A DNA stretch of 20,000 bases from NCBI GenBank assembly GCA_016937995.1, contig JAFGVM010000037.1, positions 47,437 to 67,436 on the forward strand, in the 5' to 3' direction. The position numbers and the translations under genes were made by a program. The notes under the pieces were generated by a model. The model did not search any database. It was not told where the DNA came from and worked only from the letters and a program-made list of their open reading frames with translations. This document shows positions 3,033 to 10,590 of the stretch, one piece after another (the first letter of the stretch is position 1; each line of letters begins with the position of its first letter). Source of the stretch: Candidatus Delongbacteria bacterium. Its GTDB lineage: Bacteria; UBA4055.

Positions 3033-4406
3033 CTACAAACTGTCTTCTATTTCTTTCAGTTTTAACTGAATGAGCTGCATTATCTCATCAAGTCTTTCCT
3101 GTGTCTGGGCTTCATATCTCTGTACTAAAGCAGGTTGTGTATTTGATGCTCTAAGAAGTCCGAAACCATCATCAAAGATAACCCTTACTCCATCAACATC
3201 ATTTACTTTATATCCTGCATTCTTAAAATATTCTACCGCTTTTTTAACTATCTCAAATTTCTTATTGTCATCACTATCTAATCTTATTTCAGGAGTCATA
3301 ATAGTTTTAGGAACATCTTTCAATAATTCAGAGATCGAACTTCCGGTAGTTGACATAATTTCAAGCAACCTTAAAGAAGCATAAAGTGCATCATCATGTC
3401 CAAAAAATCTGTCTTTGAAGAAAATGTGCCCACTTACCTCTCCACCTAATTCTGCATTTTCTTCTTTCATCTTAGCTTTGATCAGTGAATGACCTGCTTT
3501 CCACATAATTGCTCTTCCGCCAAGCTCTTCAATACCGTCATACATAGTCTGAGAACATTTAACTTCACCTATAATAGTTGCGCCGGGTTTTCTTGAAAGA
3601 ATCTCTTTTGCAAAGATAAGCATAAGATGATCACCAAAAAGCATCTTACCTGTTTCACTTACGATACCAATTCTGTCAGCATCACCGTCATAACCTATAC
3701 CAAGATCAGCTTTTTCTTCCTCAACTTTAGCTATAAGATCGACCATATTCTTAGGAACAGTAGGATCCGGATGATGATTCGGGAACGTTCCATCAGGCTT
3801 TGTATAAAGTTCAATAACTTCCATTCCGAAATGCCTGAATATCTCAGCTGCGACCTCTCCACCTGTACCATTCCCACCATCAACTACGACCTTTAGCTTT
3901 TTTTCGCCCATATTGATATTTTCTTTCATATAACCGAGATAATCTTCCTTAACTGAAATGGTATCAAGTTTACCTTGTGCTCTGTCTGGTGGTTTTGCAT
4001 AAAATTTATTTTCAAGAATGATATTTTTAAGAACTTGTATCTCTTGACCGAAAATAGAAGCAAACTTTGTTGACATCTTCAGTCCATTCATATCTGAAGG
4101 ATTGTGAGAACCTGTTATCATAACACTTGCATCAGCTTCAAGTTTATACTGAGCAAAATATAGCAATGGAGTTGTACATTGACCGATAGAAGTAATATTG
4201 ATACCCAGTTCTATCATTGCTTTTGAAAAAGTACTAAACATATAATCAGCTGAAAGCCTTGCATCAAAACCGATCACACAGTTATTAAGACCTTTTTCTG
4301 CCAGATATGTAGCTAATGCCCTACCGATATTAGTTACAATCTCAGGAGTAAAATCAGCCTCAACTACTCCTCTAATGTCATATTCTCTAAATATATTTTC
4401 GTTCAC
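3033..4406 (-). CDS. Phosphomannomutase/phosphoglucomutase (AlgC-type)
   Basis: IFREYDIRG, phosphoserine motif TGSHNP, metal loop DGDADR, GEVSGH, RASNTQP. Confidence 0.95.
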   Translation of the reverse strand: MNENIFREYDIRGVVEADFTPEIVTNIGRALATYLAEKGLNNCVIGFDARLSADYMFSTFSKAMIELGINITSIGQCTTPLLYFAQYKLEADASVMITGSHNPSDMNGLKMSTKFASIFGQEIQVLKNIILENKFYAKPPDRAQGKLDTISVKEDYLGYMKENINMGEKKLKVVVDGGNGTGGEVAAEIFRHFGMEVIELYTKPDGTFPNHHPDPTVPKNMVDLIAKVEEEKADLGIGYDGDADRIGIVSETGKMLFGDHLMLIFAKEILSRKPGATIIGEVKCSQTMYDGIEELGGRAIMWKAGHSLIKAKMKEENAELGGEVSGHIFFKDRFFGHDDALYASLRLLEIMSTTGSSISELLKDVPKTIMTPEIRLDSDDNKKFEIVKKAVEYFKNAGYKVNDVDGVRVIFDDGFGLLRASNTQPALVQRYEAQTQERLDEIMQLIQLKLKEIEDSL

Positions 4407-4436
4407 AACTTATCTCCTTATGTTTTACACTCGCCT

Positions 4437-4465
4437 AAGATACGAAATGATTAACTGATACACAA
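4437..4465 (-). promoter_or_regulatory. Predicted promoter of PMM/PGM
   Basis: TTGTGT (4465-4460), 17 nt, TATCTT (4442-4437). Confidence 0.55.
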
Positions 4466-4545
4466 CTGAAAAATACGTTTTTTATTAAAAGATTATATTC
4501 TCTCACAAAGGGCACTAAGACATGGAGAGTGTTTGTCAGATATGA

Positions 4546-5313
4546 CTATGCACTAGAAAGAGTTAAAGATTTTGTGATAGGATCTAGGGGAACTTTTGGA
4601 GTAGATGTATCACTACGGATTAATCTGTTAATAAATTTATTTTGAAGTTTTTTATACTCATAATATGTTTTTTCATATTCATCAATCTTTTCTATGTTTT
4701 TATAAAAATTTTTCAGATTAAGAATTCCTACTTTCCTTAATCTACCAATTTTAACAGCATATTTCCTGATGTATTTATATCTATCATTCTCAGGAAAAGT
4801 AATTCTAAATTTGTTTTTTTTAATCGCCCAAGCGATTAGCCTTTGTAAAAATTCCCTATCATCGTCTTTAACGTTGAAGAAATCACCTATTGATTGGTAA
4901 ATGCCTTTAGCTCCATGAGCCCTATCACCATAAATGTAATTGCCAGTTTTTATGTAACTTTCATGGGATATAAAATATGGAATTAAGAACTTATTAATAT
5001 AATCTGCAATACTTGTTGAATTGCTTAATTGTAGTAATAAATCAAAATGTGTGGCAACACATAGTGCTTTATTACTTAATTTATGTTCATTTCTAACTTT
5101 ATTTTCAGTTTCATATACTATTGGAGGTACCGTTGGGTAAGTTTTTGCAAATATTATCTTTAGCTTTGGAGCAGAATTTACAACAATATCTTCGTATCTA
5201 GCTTTAATAATAAATCTACCTTTTATCTCAAGATAATCACCTTTATCCACTATTTTCATCTCAGGATAGATCTGTTGAATATATTTGATACTTTTACATA
5301 TTATTTCCCCCAT
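4546..5313 (-). CDS. CBASS-associated standalone E2 (ubiquitin-conjugating fold; type II-short Cap2-like)
   Basis: UBC-like YPTVPPIVYE...H......LC with a candidate catalytic Cys, then FLIPYF...GDRAHGAKGI; directly after the CD-NTase; ATG 5313 overlaps the CD-NTase end by 13 nt. Confidence 0.75.
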   Translation of the reverse strand: MGEIICKSIKYIQQIYPEMKIVDKGDYLEIKGRFIIKARYEDIVVNSAPKLKIIFAKTYPTVPPIVYETENKVRNEHKLSNKALCVATHFDLLLQLSNSTSIADYINKFLIPYFISHESYIKTGNYIYGDRAHGAKGIYQSIGDFFNVKDDDREFLQRLIAWAIKKNKFRITFPENDRYKYIRKYAVKIGRLRKVGILNLKNFYKNIEKIDEYEKTYYEYKKLQNKFINRLIRSDTSTPKVPLDPITKSLTLSSA

Positions 5314-6233
5314 AGTTTTGCACCTGTTGTGTACTCTTTTATTTCTTCTTGCTCCTGTTCTTTCTTTAATGGGAAACATTCTCCAAATAGCTCTCTAAAT
5401 ACAAGAGAAGCTCGATTACCACTATTATTATTTAGAGCTGTATTAATATCATCTAAAAAATCTTCTAGGTTTGAAATTCTTTTACTTTTCTGATAATCGG
5501 ACAAATCTTTCCACAAATCCTCATATGGTGATACCGGTTTAGAAATACTGTTCTCAGATTTCAATGTATTAATAATTTTATACAGAGTGTTATATAGTGA
5601 TTTGTCGTCTCTATCTTCATTCGGAACAAAGCAGTTAATACCTAAAATAGTTAATTCAATGCTAGTAAAATCAATATCTAAATAATCACGCCATGATTTT
5701 AAGTATCTAATAATCCTTGAATTTTGTTCATTGAATCTATTTTTGTAAAACCAATCCTTAAACTCTTTTGAATCACTATTAATCCATGAATTATCATTTG
5801 TCCTAGCCAAATATGCTTTTCCATCCTTTATAATATAAACCGGGATATCTAAATGATAGTATTTTCTATAATAAACTCTAACACAGCTTGTTTTACTTTC
5901 ACAACCATCCTGAGTATGTCCTACTAATGACTTTAAAATATCCTGATGGATTTCATTAGGTTTAGGCCAAGAATCTGAGTCCTCATCAACATGTCTTAAA
6001 TATAATCCATCGTCAATATCAACTTCAATATCTTCTTTAGGATTCAAAGCGGTATTAATTACAAATGAACCTTGGGATTTAAACAGAGGAATATTAATTT
6101 TCAACTCATCTTTAAAATATGTTCTTATTTTATCCCTTACAGCATTTCGACTTTTTAAAATTTTTTCTTTTTTGGTTTTTGTAAGCTTAATCTTCTTGTT
6201 GAAATCACAAAATTCTTTATGAAAGTTTAACAT
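5301..6233 (-). CDS. cGAS/DncV-like nucleotidyltransferase (CD-NTase, SMODS family)
   Basis: QGSF...DIDDGLY (DncV-like GS + DxD), K.SCVRV.Y....HLDIPVY third acidic residue, IIRYLKSWRD; SD GGAGGT upstream; C-terminus ...GAKLWGK. Confidence 0.93.
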   Translation of the reverse strand: MLNFHKEFCDFNKKIKLTKTKKEKILKSRNAVRDKIRTYFKDELKINIPLFKSQGSFVINTALNPKEDIEVDIDDGLYLRHVDEDSDSWPKPNEIHQDILKSLVGHTQDGCESKTSCVRVYYRKYYHLDIPVYIIKDGKAYLARTNDNSWINSDSKEFKDWFYKNRFNEQNSRIIRYLKSWRDYLDIDFTSIELTILGINCFVPNEDRDDKSLYNTLYKIINTLKSENSISKPVSPYEDLWKDLSDYQKSKRISNLEDFLDDINTALNNNSGNRASLVFRELFGECFPLKKEQEQEEIKEYTTGAKLWGK

Positions 6234-6241
6234 TTTACCTC

Positions 6242-6832
6242 CTAATATGTACCTTTTAATTTTTTACCTACAAATTTAGTTTCAATGGTTCCTTTTGTAG
6301 GTTCTTCTCTATTACTAAAATAATATCCTTTTAAATCGTTTTTTCCAATTGAGCAGTTTAATACACAAAAACCTTTATGCTCATTAATAGTATTTGAATT
6401 TTCAATCCCATCATTTTTATAAGCAAAACTAATCTCTATAGATCCGTCAGGTTTCATTATTAAATGTTCATTGATACTTTCAGAACATGATATCAATTCA
6501 TTATCATAGCTAAATTGTCTTATATATACGTAACTTGATGTTTGGGAAATTTCTATTATAATATGAATTTCTTTACCACCGTTGTAGTTTGATTTTAATG
6601 TCCCTTCATACCTTCCAGAAACATCTTTAATATTTAATAGATATGGAAAATATTTCCATAATTTTTTATCGTATGCGATCAATACAAAGGAAATAAAAGC
6701 TATAGCTGATACAGAAGGTATCCAGTTAAACGTTTCAGGAATTAATGATACAATAATCGAGTGTATAGCTATCAACGCAACAATAAAAAATATTAAAGTA
6801 TTAACTTTATAGTATTTAAATGACAATTTCAT
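6242..6832 (-). CDS. cap15: CBASS membrane effector, Cap15-like (SMODS-associated 2TM + beta-barrel)
   Basis: Two N-terminal hydrophobic helices, then LWK...DVSGRYEGTLKSNY, I.Q, Y.N, H.G, L.GYYFSNR...T.G pattern; adjacent to the CD-NTase. Confidence 0.85.
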   Translation of the reverse strand: MKLSFKYYKVNTLIFFIVALIAIHSIIVSLIPETFNWIPSVSAIAFISFVLIAYDKKLWKYFPYLLNIKDVSGRYEGTLKSNYNGGKEIHIIIEISQTSSYVYIRQFSYDNELISCSESINEHLIMKPDGSIEISFAYKNDGIENSNTINEHKGFCVLNCSIGKNDLKGYYFSNREEPTKGTIETKFVGKKLKGTY

Positions 6833-6849
6833 AAATTACCTTTTTGTAT

Positions 6850-7050
6850 TTAACAATGATATTTTCCCTCAATATAGCGATTGTAAAAAGTTCCTTTTGA
6901 TCTAGAATTTATAAATCTTTCAAATACTTCTTGCGGAACTCTACAAAAATCATAAGTCCGTCCTTGTTTAAATGTGATCTTCAATCTCATTATGTCAGGC
7001 TCGTAACCAATTTTCCTGATTGCTCTAGATCTAACTGGAATCATTTCCAT
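6850..7050 (-). CDS. KTSC domain protein (putative nucleic-acid-binding)
   Basis: PVRSRAIRKIGYE....L.ITF..G..Y....VP..V...F....SKG.FYN.YI matches the KTSC consensus; 66 aa. Confidence 0.9.
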   Translation of the reverse strand: MEMIPVRSRAIRKIGYEPDIMRLKITFKQGRTYDFCRVPQEVFERFINSRSKGTFYNRYIEGKYHC

Positions 7051-7051
7051 T

Positions 7052-7648
7052 CTATTTTTTCCCCACTATCTTCTCAACCACCTTATAAACCGTACTCCCA
7101 GCACTCTTCAACCTCTCCTCAAACGATCCTTTATCCTTATCCTTTGCCCTTTTCACAGCAGCATGAATCATTTTATCTGTGATCTGATTTACATCAACAC
7201 CTTTATCATAATTTGGAAGATATTTCTTAAGCTTCTTTGTACAATCCTTAGAATTCTTAACCCCTTTCCCATCTTCAAAATGCAGAAGCAACCAATACTC
7301 AAACTTAGGATTGCTCAAAGCAAAACCGTAATTCTCTTTCTCCTCTGCCCAATCGTGCAATTGCTTCAACTGCTTATCAGTCCACTCATCCCTGTCAACA
7401 ACAAGCCAGGCTTCATCTGTTTCTAAAAGGTTTTCCTCTTTTATATAATCCTTCATTCTCTTTAAAACACTAAGCGGTGAACTCTTTTTCTTACTTTTAA
7501 GACATTTCACTCTGATAATTGAACCTCTATTATCAAAGATCGAGAAATATTCCTGTTCAGTCTTTTGACCTTCAGTAGAGATGATATAAAGCTTTTTATA
7601 CCTCCTCGTTCCTGTCTTACGTTTAAACGATCTTCTTTTAGGCGGCAT
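7052..7648 (-). CDS. rloB: RloB-family (AbiLii-like) TOPRIM-fold protein
   Basis: IISTEGQKTEQEYF, WLVVDRD, SNPKFEYWLLLHF; ATG 7648 overlaps the rloA stop (TAATG). Confidence 0.9.
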   Translation of the reverse strand: MPPKRRSFKRKTGTRRYKKLYIISTEGQKTEQEYFSIFDNRGSIIRVKCLKSKKKSSPLSVLKRMKDYIKEENLLETDEAWLVVDRDEWTDKQLKQLHDWAEEKENYGFALSNPKFEYWLLLHFEDGKGVKNSKDCTKKLKKYLPNYDKGVDVNQITDKMIHAAVKRAKDKDKGSFEERLKSAGSTVYKVVEKIVGKK

Positions 7649-8976
7649 TAACAATTACCTTTTTTATTTTGCAATGTCTTCTTCAAGTTTATCTTAGGAG
7701 TACCACCTAATCTGCCCTGCAGATAGCTTTTTCTGATATCCTTATCGTATCTGATCTCTTTATATTCAATAAATGAACGTAAACTTGACATACCTTTCTC
7801 ATCTCTTTCAGCGATCCACATCTCATCTCTGCGAAGCAGTTCCTGATCCATCAAAAGAAGATCATGAGTAGTGAACAACAATTGAGAACGGCTATCCTTG
7901 CTACAATTACACAAAAACACTTCGATCAGCTGTTTTGTCAAAGTAGTATGTAAACTTCTGTTCACTTCATCTATTATATAGACCTTATTATTTTTAGTCA
8001 TTGACAGATCCAGAAATGCAGGTAAAAGATCAATTACTCTGAGTGATCCATCTGATTCCTGATGTAATTCAAACTTTTCTTCATCACCATCCGTTTTGGA
8101 ATGATATGCAACTAACTTTTTTGCCTGCAATTCATTCTTCTCTCTTGAAATAATATATCTTTCGTTCGTAACCATTGAATGCAAACGAACCGCTGTGTTT
8201 TTTGTAACGTCCTCTCTTAGTTTATTCCTAAGATCTTCCGGTAACGGTATATTTTCAAAAGGAAAACTGATATATTCAATATGTTTTATGCCTGTATCAA
8301 GTGTCGCAAGCATATCATTCATTCTTTTAAACAGAGGATTTTTATCGTCAAGAAACTGTTCATATTGGCCAAATCGTGTATCCGGTGCAATAAGTACAAG
8401 AGTATATTTGAACCAGTTATAAACAGGTGCAAATGTATTAACATTCTGAGAAACACTGTTAGTTAAAAATAACTGATTCGCTCTTGTACCTTTAAATGCA
8501 AATTGCAACAGTCCATCTTTCGTAAGAGGAATATGCATATTAGCTTTATCTTTCTTTCGATGATACAGCATTTTCTCACTGGTACTTGTAATCTGAACCA
8601 GTTTTTCTTCAAGTACTTCTTTTTGAGAAACAGAAAAACTAAATTCATATATTTTTTCATCGATCAGCATTTCAAGTTTAAATTTTGACGGCTTTTTAAT
8701 ACTTTGTTTATCAAGTCTGAACGGTTCAGTAAGGATCATACTTTCAGGTCTAGTTCCATCAACTACAAAATCTTTTATAAAAGATAGTGCCTGAAACAGA
8801 TTTGTTTTACCTGATGCATTACCGCCATAAATAGAAGCAACAGGTAAAATTCTTGTCTGATATTTACTTAATTTCGGTACTCTGTCCCCATGTTGTCTTT
8901 CCTTGCTCGCTACCATCGAAAATTCAGAAGATTCTTTAAATGACAACCAGTTCTCCACTTTTAAACTTATAAGCAT
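7648..8976 (-). CDS. rloA: RloA/AbiLi-like ABC-type ATPase (AAA_21 family)
   Basis: Walker A GGNASGKT, signature ESDGS, Walker B IIDE..SLH, H-loop [25 protein letters not shown]. Confidence 0.9.
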
Positions 8977-9014
8977 TTTTCCAATCCTTTATGTTATTTT
9001 TTCTCCCCCAATTT

Positions 9015-9045
9015 CAAAGATACAATATTATTTTTCTTTTGTCAA
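9015..9045 (-). promoter_or_regulatory. Strong predicted promoter of the defence cluster
   Basis: TTGACA (9045-9040), 17 nt, TATCTT (9022-9017), extending to TATCTTTG, which also fits the Bacteroidota TAnnTTTG element. Confidence 0.75.
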
Positions 9046-9168
9046 TTGTTTAATGAGATTATTTCTCTTAATTCATTATTTTTATTCAGTCGCATGCCTA
9101 TTTTACAATACTTTGCAAGCCATACAGCTTTGCGTTCCTCTTATCATATATTTTTCGAACGGTATGAG

Positions 9169-9207
9169 ATCAAGTCTTAGTGAGTTAATCGAAGACTTAG
9201 ACTTGAT
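9169..9207. other. Inverted repeat/hairpin upstream of the defence promoter
   Basis: ATCAAGTCT (9169-9177) pairs with AGACTTGAT (9199-9207), extendable by AGT/ACT after one mismatch. Confidence 0.5.
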
Positions 9208-9359
9208 TATTTTTACTTACTTTGCACTTAACGTAATTTTGGTTACCTGACGAAAGTGACTTTTGATTGTTGTGCAAAATACATTTCTTGATATTTGGGT
9301 AGACATGGATTTTGAAATGAAAAGTACCGGAAGTCCCAAAATTAGCGTTCGTGCTGCCC

Positions 9360-9543
9360 TTTTCTTTCCTCCCGATTTATCGGGATTTTGGGCAAGCAAA
9401 AGAAAGCTGAAGACATCATTTAATACTCCTAGATACCCGGATCAAGTCCGAGAATGACATTTATCCTAGCGGGATATAACTCCCCTAACCACAGGTTTCA
9501 ACCTGTGGGATAAAAAAAAGGGCGTAATAAATTACACCCCTAC
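9360..9543. repeat. Cluster of different palindromic repeats downstream of trpS
   Basis: TCCCGAT-tt-ATCGGGA (9370-9385); TCAAG-loop copy 2 (9430-9460); CCACAGGTT-tc-AACCTGTGG (9489-9508); - strand GTAG-GGGTGTAAT-tt-ATTACGCCC (9543-9520). Confidence 0.75.
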
Positions 9544-9564: not shown

Positions 9565-10590
9565 TTACCTTGCAGGTGCAACCAACCCAACTTTCTTATA
9601 TACCTTCGAAAGTAACTTGTATGCCGAACTCTGTACGTTCGCAGCTCCCTGCTTAAGAATCTGATCAAGATATTTTTTATCCTTTAGAAGTTCATCGTGC
9701 TTTTCCTTGATAGGTCTGAGAGTCTCAACAACAATTTCAGAAAGGTCTTTCTTAAAATCTCCGTATCCAGAATTAACATATTTCTTTTCGATCTCAGAGA
9801 TCTCTGTATCAGTCAATGTAGAATAAATTGTGAGCAGGTTATTGATCCCGGCTTTTTCAGGATTACTTTGATCATATCTGATCTCCATATCTGAATCTGT
9901 AACAGCACTTTTGATCTTTTTAGCTGTAATATTAAGATCCTCTGTAAGGATAATAGTTCCTTTAGGTGATTCAGCGGATTTACTCATTTTATTCTCAGGA
10001 TGCTGCAGGTCCATTATCCTCGCTCCCTGCTTAGGAATGATAGCTTCCGGAATATTAAAAGTAGGTGAGTAAGTATAGTTGAATTTTTCAGCAATATCTC
10101 TTGACAGTTCAAGATGCTGTTTCTGATCATCTCCGATAGGAATCAGATTTGCATTATATAACAATATATCAGCAGCCATTAAGACCGGATAAGCAAAAAG
10201 TCCAACATTTATAAATGTTCCTTCCTTTGCAGACTTATCTTTATACTGTGTCATTCTGTTCAACTGACCCATTCCGGTCAAAGTGTTCAATATCCAGGTG
10301 AGTTCAGTATGTCCTGTAATATGAGACTGAACAAATATATTAGATTTCTCAGGATCCAGACCTACAGCAAGATAAAGTGCCAGCATTGAATAAGTTCTTT
10401 CCCTCAATTCACTTGGAACCTGAGGAACAGTCAGAGCATGAAGATCAACGATTATATAATTTTTTGTATAATCCTGATATTTATCCTGCATATTCACAAA
10501 ATTCTTCATTGCTCCGATATAATTACCCAGAGTCAGATTATTTGTAGGCTGAATACCGCTTAATATTGTTTTCTTTTCTGTATTTTCCAT
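9565..10590 (-). CDS. trpS: Tryptophan--tRNA ligase
   Basis: SGIQPT, TLGNYIGA (HIGH-like), YPVLMAADIL, GDDQKQH, KMSKS. Confidence 0.98.
   Translation of the reverse strand: MENTEKKTILSGIQPTNNLTLGNYIGAMKNFVNMQDKYQDYTKNYIIVDLHALTVPQVPSELRERTYSMLALYLAVGLDPEKSNIFVQSHITGHTELTWILNTLTGMGQLNRMTQYKDKSAKEGTFINVGLFAYPVLMAADILLYNANLIPIGDDQKQHLELSRDIAEKFNYTYSPTFNIPEAIIPKQGARIMDLQHPENKMSKSAESPKGTIILTEDLNITAKKIKSAVTDSDMEIRYDQSNPEKAGINNLLTIYSTLTDTEISEIEKKYVNSGYGDFKKDLSEIVVETLRPIKEKHDELLKDKKYLDQILKQGAANVQSSAYKLLSKVYKKVGLVAPAR

Follow-up and report, generated by a model that had tools for sequence, protein, structure and literature searches.

A tightly packed defence locus in a Delongbacteria genome as a probable mosaic of an AbiL-type pair, a KTSC gene and a type II-short CBASS

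Within a 20,000-nucleotide (nt) stretch of contig JAFGVM010000037.1 from Candidatus Delongbacteria bacterium (assembly GCA_016937995.1), hereafter the window, we examined six co-oriented open reading frames (ORFs) on the minus strand, flanked by trpS and by a phosphoglucomutase-type gene that we call pgm. They encode an AbiL-type pair made up of one ABC ATPase plus one TOPRIM-like protein (RloA and RloB), a small KTSC-domain protein, and the effector Cap15, CD-NTase and E2 protein of a cyclic oligonucleotide-based antiphage signalling system (CBASS); every ORF of the island is accounted for. We think it fairly probable that the locus is a mosaic defence island, in which a resident AbiL pair, the KTSC gene and an acquired CBASS are separable modules set head to tail and the two immune arms are independent. 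The initial annotation had read the same genes as one composite operon whose arms may be functionally coupled. Its six co-oriented genes are all present, and their identities are supported by Pfam and PADLOC matches; judged by the sequence comparisons below, the parts are of known kinds and the layout is operon-like with one promoter, and coupling is not supported. The genes, with sizes in amino acids (aa) and E-values of the matches, are as follows:

7648-8976, minus strand: rloA, AbiLi-type ABC ATPase, 442 aa; AAA_21 (PF13304) 3.5e-38, PADLOC AbiLi 6.8e-78
7052-7654, minus strand: rloB, AbiLii-type TOPRIM-like protein, 200 aa, probable TTG start; PF13707 3.1e-37, PADLOC AbiLii 1.3e-24
6850-7050, minus strand: KTSC-domain protein, 66 aa; PF13619 1.1e-20
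6242-6832, minus strand: cap15, CBASS effector, 196 aa; Cap15_CD_rec 5.8e-13, PADLOC two-transmembrane (2TM) effector 1.1e-26
5301-6233, minus strand: CD-NTase, 310 aa; PADLOC cyclase 7e-86, PF21654 1.4e-18, SMODS 7.8e-13, PDB 7ljo 1.9e-33
4546-5313, minus strand: E2-only Cap2, 255 aa; PADLOC E2 5.8e-29

The window lies on contig C81 of a 2.75-Mb metagenome-assembled genome (MAG) of 99 contigs, G000, which was compared with 60 related genomes. RloA orthologues were found in four of these, the Delongbacteria relatives G002 (88% identity), G001 (81%), G015 (67%) and G003 (58%), and each is followed by RloB. No CD-NTase was found in any of the 60 genomes, and a tblastn search of the four orthologous RloAB loci for the KTSC, Cap15, CD-NTase and E2 proteins of the window gave no match. 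Since the RloAB orthologues stand without CBASS in all four relatives that have them, the two modules are separable. What follows rloB differs between the relatives: in G002 a 119-aa integron-cassette-like protein (PF21648) and then the contig end; in G001 a 719-aa AAA_13/PDC-S06-like ATPase and then a divergent 69-aa KTSC protein (PF13619, 5e-17); in G015 a 434-aa protein without a Pfam or PADLOC match and then a TIR/ThsB-like protein, which may together form a Thoeris-like pair; and in G003 a convergent gene, with no co-oriented cargo. DNA homology among the five genomes ends in the last codons of rloB, with the rloB stop and the end of homology at these positions:

L014:9750-9790
L015:2425-2445
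L016:10560-10570
L017:1580-1620
window 7045-7055

In four of the five genomes a different co-oriented gene starts 0-22 nt past the rloB stop, as though the 3' end of rloB carried a slot for variable cargo. In G015, the start of the 434-aa gene overlaps the stop of the preceding RloAB (L016:10565-12357). The PF21648 match in G002 prompted us to consider an integron-cassette origin for the window's cargo, which we dropped because its gaps of 1-17 nt are too small for attC sites.

Base composition was assessed against a genome GC of 0.346 and a reference set of the 1445 ORFs of at least 250 aa in this genome. The cap15 gene (GC 0.259) falls at the 0.3rd percentile, E2 at the 1.9th and CD-NTase at the 3.4th, with rloA at the 31st and rloB at the 73rd. 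Because all three CBASS genes lie within the lowest 0.3-3.4% while rloA and rloB are typical of the genome, the former are compositionally foreign and were probably acquired horizontally.

By its sequence, RloAB would be an AbiL-type anti-phage pair, as the initial annotation had noted, with clear matches to both PADLOC models (AbiLi and AbiLii, listed above), a downstream RloB partner on the same strand and intact motifs. RloA scores 132.8 bits against PF13304 (cut-off 27) and contains GNASGKT; its residues D336-E337 and T370-H371-D372, which we read as Walker B and H-loop, are invariant among the aligned orthologues, as are E33 and D87-R88-D89 of RloB in five orthologues, in our own reading its acidic motifs. 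The rloB start is probably TTG 7654, because all five orthologues share the N-terminus MLM, two of them with ATG as its first codon. This places the rloA/rloB junction at a likely -7 nt instead of the -1 nt first given, which assumed an ATG at 7648; the other junctions of the initial annotation are exact (+1 nt to KTSC, +17 nt to cap15, +8 nt to CD-NTase and -13 nt, an overlap, between CD-NTase and E2).

For the CBASS arm, the earlier assignment to a type II-short system of Cap15, CD-NTase and E2 is supported by the PADLOC and Pfam matches and by intact catalytic residues: the catalytic core, an E2-only Cap2 with its cysteine and an effector in the operon are all present. Cap15 has two N-terminal hydrophobic segments and a cyclic-nucleotide receptor barrel (Cap15_CD_rec, 49.7 bits against a cut-off of 31.2), and its sequence match to the PDB Cap15 structure 7n34 is weak (E 0.24). 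In the CD-NTase, G55-S56, D72, D74 and D129 do not vary among 34 homologues, and the C-terminus GAKLWGK matches the family-wide GAKPWG tail. Across the E2-only clade (P0001-P0080), the CD-NTases have in common an almost invariant G-A/P-K-P-W motif, 1-4 residues before their C-terminus, which is likely to be a recognition tail for E2. The PADLOC match of E2 covers residues 3-153 of 255, and its starting MG, Cys85 and His77 are invariant in six aligned homologues; the protein gave no Pfam match at E<=0.01 and no ThiF or JAB match, and none of the ORFs of the island is an E1 or JAB gene. The closest CD-NTase in a collection of 5.8 billion proteins is 61% identical. Some related systems look decayed: in Treponema vincentii OMZ 806 (L025:6001-6929) and at L019:4172-5101 the CD-NTase is broken into two ORFs. 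The type II-short class name and the mechanism of Cap15 are reportedly established in the CBASS literature.

A promoter for the AbiL pair could be recognized by its conservation. The sites, both upstream of rloA, are:

9017..9045, minus strand: promoter-like TTGACA-17-TATCTT, 10 of 12 matches in a consensus scan
9055..9067, minus strand: GAGA-N5-TCTC palindrome, immediately upstream of the -35 box; it may serve the AbiL-type promoter as operator

A bare consensus match is at chance level, since shuffled sequences give 26.0 +/- 4.6 promoter-like sites and the region itself 26, of which 14 lie on the minus strand inside the cluster. A TTGAGA-17-TAGAAT site, a possible internal start, lies at 7077-7049. 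When the sequences upstream of rloA in G000, G002 and G015 were aligned, TTGAC and TAT(A/C)TT at 17-nt spacing and the palindrome were all conserved. A GAGA-N5-TCTC-type palindrome also precedes the rloA-like gene at L008, and spirochaete AbiL pairs have TGTGA-N4-6-TCACA in the equivalent upstream place. Thus, in a comparative sense, the promoter that the initial annotation had pointed out is real and belongs to the AbiL pair. We likewise found no terminator-like site on the minus strand from 8976 to 4546, in agreement with its report of no internal terminator, nor in the gap between E2 and pgm, with a simple scan that may miss weak terminators and internal promoters; a strong terminator follows trpS at 9541-9518. 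No contig from an RNA run of the same study was placed on the stretch, and no RNA dataset is listed as containing it. From this layout, co-expression of the six genes from the rloA promoter is plausible.

The mosaic that we favour would work as follows. By analogy with PARIS and OLD, the RloA ABC ATPase would probably hold the RloB TOPRIM-like nuclease in check until the ATPase receives a cue from a phage; PARIS, as described in two reports (PMC11464382; 10.1101/2024.01.02.573894), serves here as a working analogy for the RloAB mechanism. The AbiL pair would be the resident element, with its own conserved promoter and candidate palindromic operator, and the KTSC protein would most likely be a nucleic-acid-binding protein and an optional accessory of RloAB. 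The type II-short CBASS would have been acquired horizontally, and its CD-NTase would make a cyclic nucleotide upon infection. Cap15 would then bind this nucleotide and breach the membrane, and E2 would regulate the cyclase through the conserved C-terminal tail. Later modules would have landed in the slot that opens at the rloB stop codon and would probably be read through from the rloA promoter, perhaps into pgm. The two immune arms would most likely act independently, in layered rather than coupled immunity.

The KTSC protein matches PF13619 at 73.5 bits (cut-off 25) over model positions 2-58 of 58, and in the PDB it matches 4rgi (1.7e-11) and the C-terminus of the HerA protein of SIR2-HerA (8wiv, 4.4e-6). 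In PMC7824862, KTSC is called an RNA-binding domain. A word-indexed protein search returned only three KTSC proteins; the one 82% identical to the window's, P0086, lies on a 5.5-kb contig. Nine metagenome loci hold closest relatives with 46-55% identity, and none of the nine has a CD-NTase or RloB; KTSC comes directly after an island integrase in two (L047 and L048), three near-identical loci (including L052) have an IS110 transposase nearby, and in L049 the gene follows an OLD-family ATPase-TOPRIM nuclease. RloB, RloA and CD-NTase were all absent from the 38 KTSC locus records, other than the window's own, that were scanned. In 401 sampled genomes, PF13619 was found in 22 and PF13707 (RloB) in 37. 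A defence-type P-loop ATPase lies on the same strand, adjacent or within two small genes, in 8 of 22 KTSC loci other than the window's own: OLD at L121 (10-nt gap) and in the L123 cluster, SIR2-HerA at L125 and L126, HerA at L127 (all three of these adjoining type I restriction genes), LmuB-like ATPases at L122 and L124, and the AAA_13-like ATPase of G001. Other family members occur in prophage or conjugative contexts (L103, L117 and L118) or form fusions with LysRS or DnaJ (L105 and L114). Because RloA and RloB make up a split ATPase-TOPRIM system and the KTSC family recurs with defence ATPases, KTSC sits better with the RloAB arm than with that of CBASS, and is most likely at most an optional accessory of RloAB. 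As a separate observation, KTSC abuts OLD-family nucleases (AAA_15 plus TOPRIM) in three unrelated loci (L121:1701-3924, L049:3715-6516 and L123:2638-7729), and the 10-nt gap suggests a KTSC-OLD two-gene unit.

Several observations weigh against the mosaic, touching both the independence of the arms and the place of KTSC. The tight junctions, the single conserved promoter, found upstream of rloA only, and the lack of terminator-like sites suit a deliberate operon equally well, and would be in keeping with a true composite in which the AbiL pair and the E2-only CBASS are coupled, for example because RloAB guards CBASS or produces its trigger, and are both co-regulated from the AbiL promoter. 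AbiL components also stand beside CBASS elsewhere. We assembled 35 loci of CD-NTase relatives, 28 from an alignment-based scan of 185,579 species genomes (a single-protein scan of genome contigs with the CD-NTase had given no match), six from 401 sampled spirochaete-class genomes and one from a viral collection (a distant CD-NTase of 23% identity, in a locus without RloB or KTSC), and scored them with custom hidden Markov models. An RloA-like ATPase was found in four (L021, L022, L023 and L031) and RloB in the first three of these, all spirochaete. The AbiLi/AbiLii pairs of L021, L022 and L023 (PADLOC about 1e-77 and 1e-23) adjoin the same E2-only CBASS clade as the window's and are divergently oriented, immediately upstream of a patatin-CD-NTase-E2 operon. 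L022 and L023, with CD-NTases 96% identical, are close to duplicates of one another, both beside the type I restriction gene hsdR, and L021 differs from them to a similar extent in each module (CD-NTase 63%, RloA 66% and RloB 66-68% identity), a parallel divergence that suggests that AbiL and CBASS were inherited or moved as a unit. In L021, from a Treponema MAG, rloB-rloA and patatin-CD-NTase-E2 together lie between two insertion sequence (IS) copies of 1282 bp, 99.9% identical, carrying a Mutator/IS256-type transposase, in a composite-transposon-like unit:

L021:1207-2488, first IS copy
L021:7555-8836, second IS copy

L023 has its rloA-like gene in two pieces (L023:2293-3683). At L031, an AbiLi-like ATPase without RloB lies 2.5 kb upstream of a type II CBASS. 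Set against this, 31 of the 35 loci have no AbiL component at all, the spirochaete pairs are distant from the window's (RloA 28-30%, RloB about 36% identity) and accompany patatin instead of Cap15, and the CD-NTase tree unites the RloAB-linked loci neither with one another nor with the window. Because RloB is common in those spirochaete genomes (eight copies in four of five) and L022 and L023 sit beside a restriction gene, clustering within defence islands would suffice to account for the adjacency. Of 30 RloB loci retrieved together with 1.5 kb of sequence on either side, the 29 other than the window's own contained neither KTSC nor CD-NTase. With RloAB standing without CBASS in all four relatives and the CBASS genes compositionally foreign, we consider the composite unlikely, and the functional coupling of the two arms proposed in the initial annotation is not upheld. 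The rloA-rloB-KTSC-CBASS set, for whose recurrence it had suggested searching gene neighbourhoods, was seen only in this genome; the question it raised of a juxtaposition unique to this genome is thus answered positively for the six-gene form and only in part for AbiL beside CBASS, which recurs, in divergent orientation, in 3 of 35 loci. Its authors' lack of awareness of an earlier description agrees with our finding no AbiL-KTSC-CBASS operon described in the open-access literature searched, which did not include the supplementary tables of large defence-system censuses, where co-occurrences might be listed.

Where KTSC belongs has to be weighed in the same way, given that its assignment to the RloAB arm would rest on family-level context and that the gene is absent from the equivalent position in the four other orthologous RloAB loci. 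It is there as new as CBASS, its GC at third codon positions (0.239) is nearer to that of the CBASS genes (0.18-0.22) than to that of rloB (0.39), and only 17 nt separate it from cap15, all of which favours a KTSC that belongs to or arrived with the CBASS cassette as a nucleic-acid sensor or regulator of the cyclase; its overall GC is at the 15th percentile, for a gene that at 201 nt is too short to call. We believe this to be quite improbable. KTSC is present in 0 of the 35 CD-NTase-relative loci, which also counts against the initial suggestion that KTSC relays a signal to the cyclase, CD-NTase is present in none of the nine loci of its closest relatives, and the recurrent partners of the family are ATPase-nuclease systems. 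We would give similarly little credence to the view that KTSC takes no part in either system and travels on its own with mobile DNA, for instance as a small protein of islands and prophages that binds DNA or has a regulatory function. The integrase and IS110 neighbours, the prophage and conjugative contexts and the LysRS and DnaJ fusions would all suit such a protein, but its start 1 nt past the rloB stop leaves no space for a promoter of its own, and against the 8 of 22 loci with a defence-type ATPase stand 20 equally large control regions, drawn from eleven of the same genomes, in which there was none (they held two transport ABC ATPases), a contrast that is indicative only, the control settings having been stricter (E-value 1e-8 against 1e-4, minimum ORF 90 against 60 aa). 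Beyond the mosaic itself, a joint reading of the slot and of KTSC can be put forward as tentative and, taken whole, rather doubtful: the 3' end of rloB would be a docking slot where unrelated immune modules enter within 0-22 nt of the stop, the AbiL pair a palindrome-controlled expression platform, and KTSC a widespread, uncatalogued third subunit, a nucleic-acid-binding adaptor, of OLD, AbiL, Lamassu-like and SIR2-HerA ATPase-nuclease systems. If the docking-slot part were true, layered immunity would be expressed from a regulated AbiL promoter.

The mosaic island has recognizable edges in the genome, which are given here with its flanking genes:

9565-10590: trpS, flanking the island
4531..9428, minus strand: defence island, approximate extent (about 4.9 kb), inserted between trpS and pgm
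3033-4406: pgm, flanking the island

On the trpS side, the match to the G002 sequence downstream of trpS stops near 9428, and on the pgm side the match to the G001 pgm leader restarts near 4530. In G015, trpS and pgm are spaced by 12 nt with no island between them, and its RloAB locus lies elsewhere in the genome; in G002 the island likewise sits after trpS, and G001 has different defence-like genes upstream of pgm. The G015 adjacency and the other defence-like genes before the G001 pgm point to the trpS-pgm interval as a hot spot. No remnant of the alcohol dehydrogenase gene of G002 was found upstream of rloA, and tRNA and Rfam scans of the window gave no matches. A second DNA sample of the same study yielded identical contigs spanning pgm-E2, CD-NTase-cap15 and cap15-KTSC-rloB-rloA, which come from the same strain and are not independent support. 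About 125 nt before pgm (4407-4530) are conserved between G000 and G001, so that pgm has probably retained a leader or promoter of its own; as E2 and pgm have no terminator-like site between them, transcription could also run on from the island into pgm. Directly past the trpS terminator, a hairpin-containing element at 9461-9513 is conserved in G002, matches short stretches on no fewer than four further contigs of the source metagenome, has a hairpin core with eight matches in the genome, and looks like a repetitive extragenic palindromic (REP)-like repeat.

This locus offers a worked example of how tight, operon-like packing of defence genes is by itself no proof of functional coupling, and of how comparison of loci can tell an AbiL-type pair that is resident from a CBASS that arrived recently. 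Its by-products could outweigh the original claim, namely the Delongbacteria cargo slot at the rloB stop and the repeated pairing of KTSC with defence ATPase-nucleases, which suggests an overlooked small subunit in some systems catalogued as one- or two-gene.

Compared with known systems, the RloAB pair is closest to AbiL of Lactococcus lactis and to RloA/RloB of Campylobacter type I restriction-modification loci, which are likewise overlapping, co-oriented pairs of an ABC ATPase and an RloB/TOPRIM-like protein; the window's pair differs from them in running without a gap into a KTSC gene and then CBASS. AbiL, RloAB and PARIS are grouped as ATPase plus TOPRIM/OLD systems in the review PMC13064643. 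PARIS (AriA/AriB) similarly joins an ABC ATPase scaffold to a TOPRIM nuclease, and RloA matches the AriA model at 5.8e-35; its best match, AbiLi, is however far stronger, and RloB matches AbiLii only and no AriB model. We rejected membership of PARIS, there being no AriB (DUF4435-type TOPRIM) partner. For KTSC, the nearest parallels are SIR2-HerA of Paenibacillus sp. 453MF (8WIV), where a KTSC domain is fused to the HerA C-terminus and which has its counterpart in the stand-alone KTSC after HerA in L125-L127, and the OLD family, whose nucleases a stand-alone KTSC abuts in L049, L121 and L123. The SIR2-HerA paper (PMC11472057) never uses the word KTSC, and a passage in PMC9503650 notes the coupling of HerA-like ATPases with a KTSC gene and an endoDNase. 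In contrast to both systems, the partner in the window would be a split AbiL-type pair, and an AbiL-KTSC trio occurs in 0 of the 29 other RloB loci. The CBASS arm shares with type II-short systems bearing Cap15 the CD-NTase, the E2-only Cap2 with its invariant cysteine and the 2TM-barrel effector. Its nearest located CD-NTase relatives, from spirochaetes (50-56% identity), have a patatin effector and not Cap15, whereas those relatives that do bear Cap15 have complete type II operons, E1-E2 and JAB included, and because of this the window's operon combines an E2-only core with a swapped effector.

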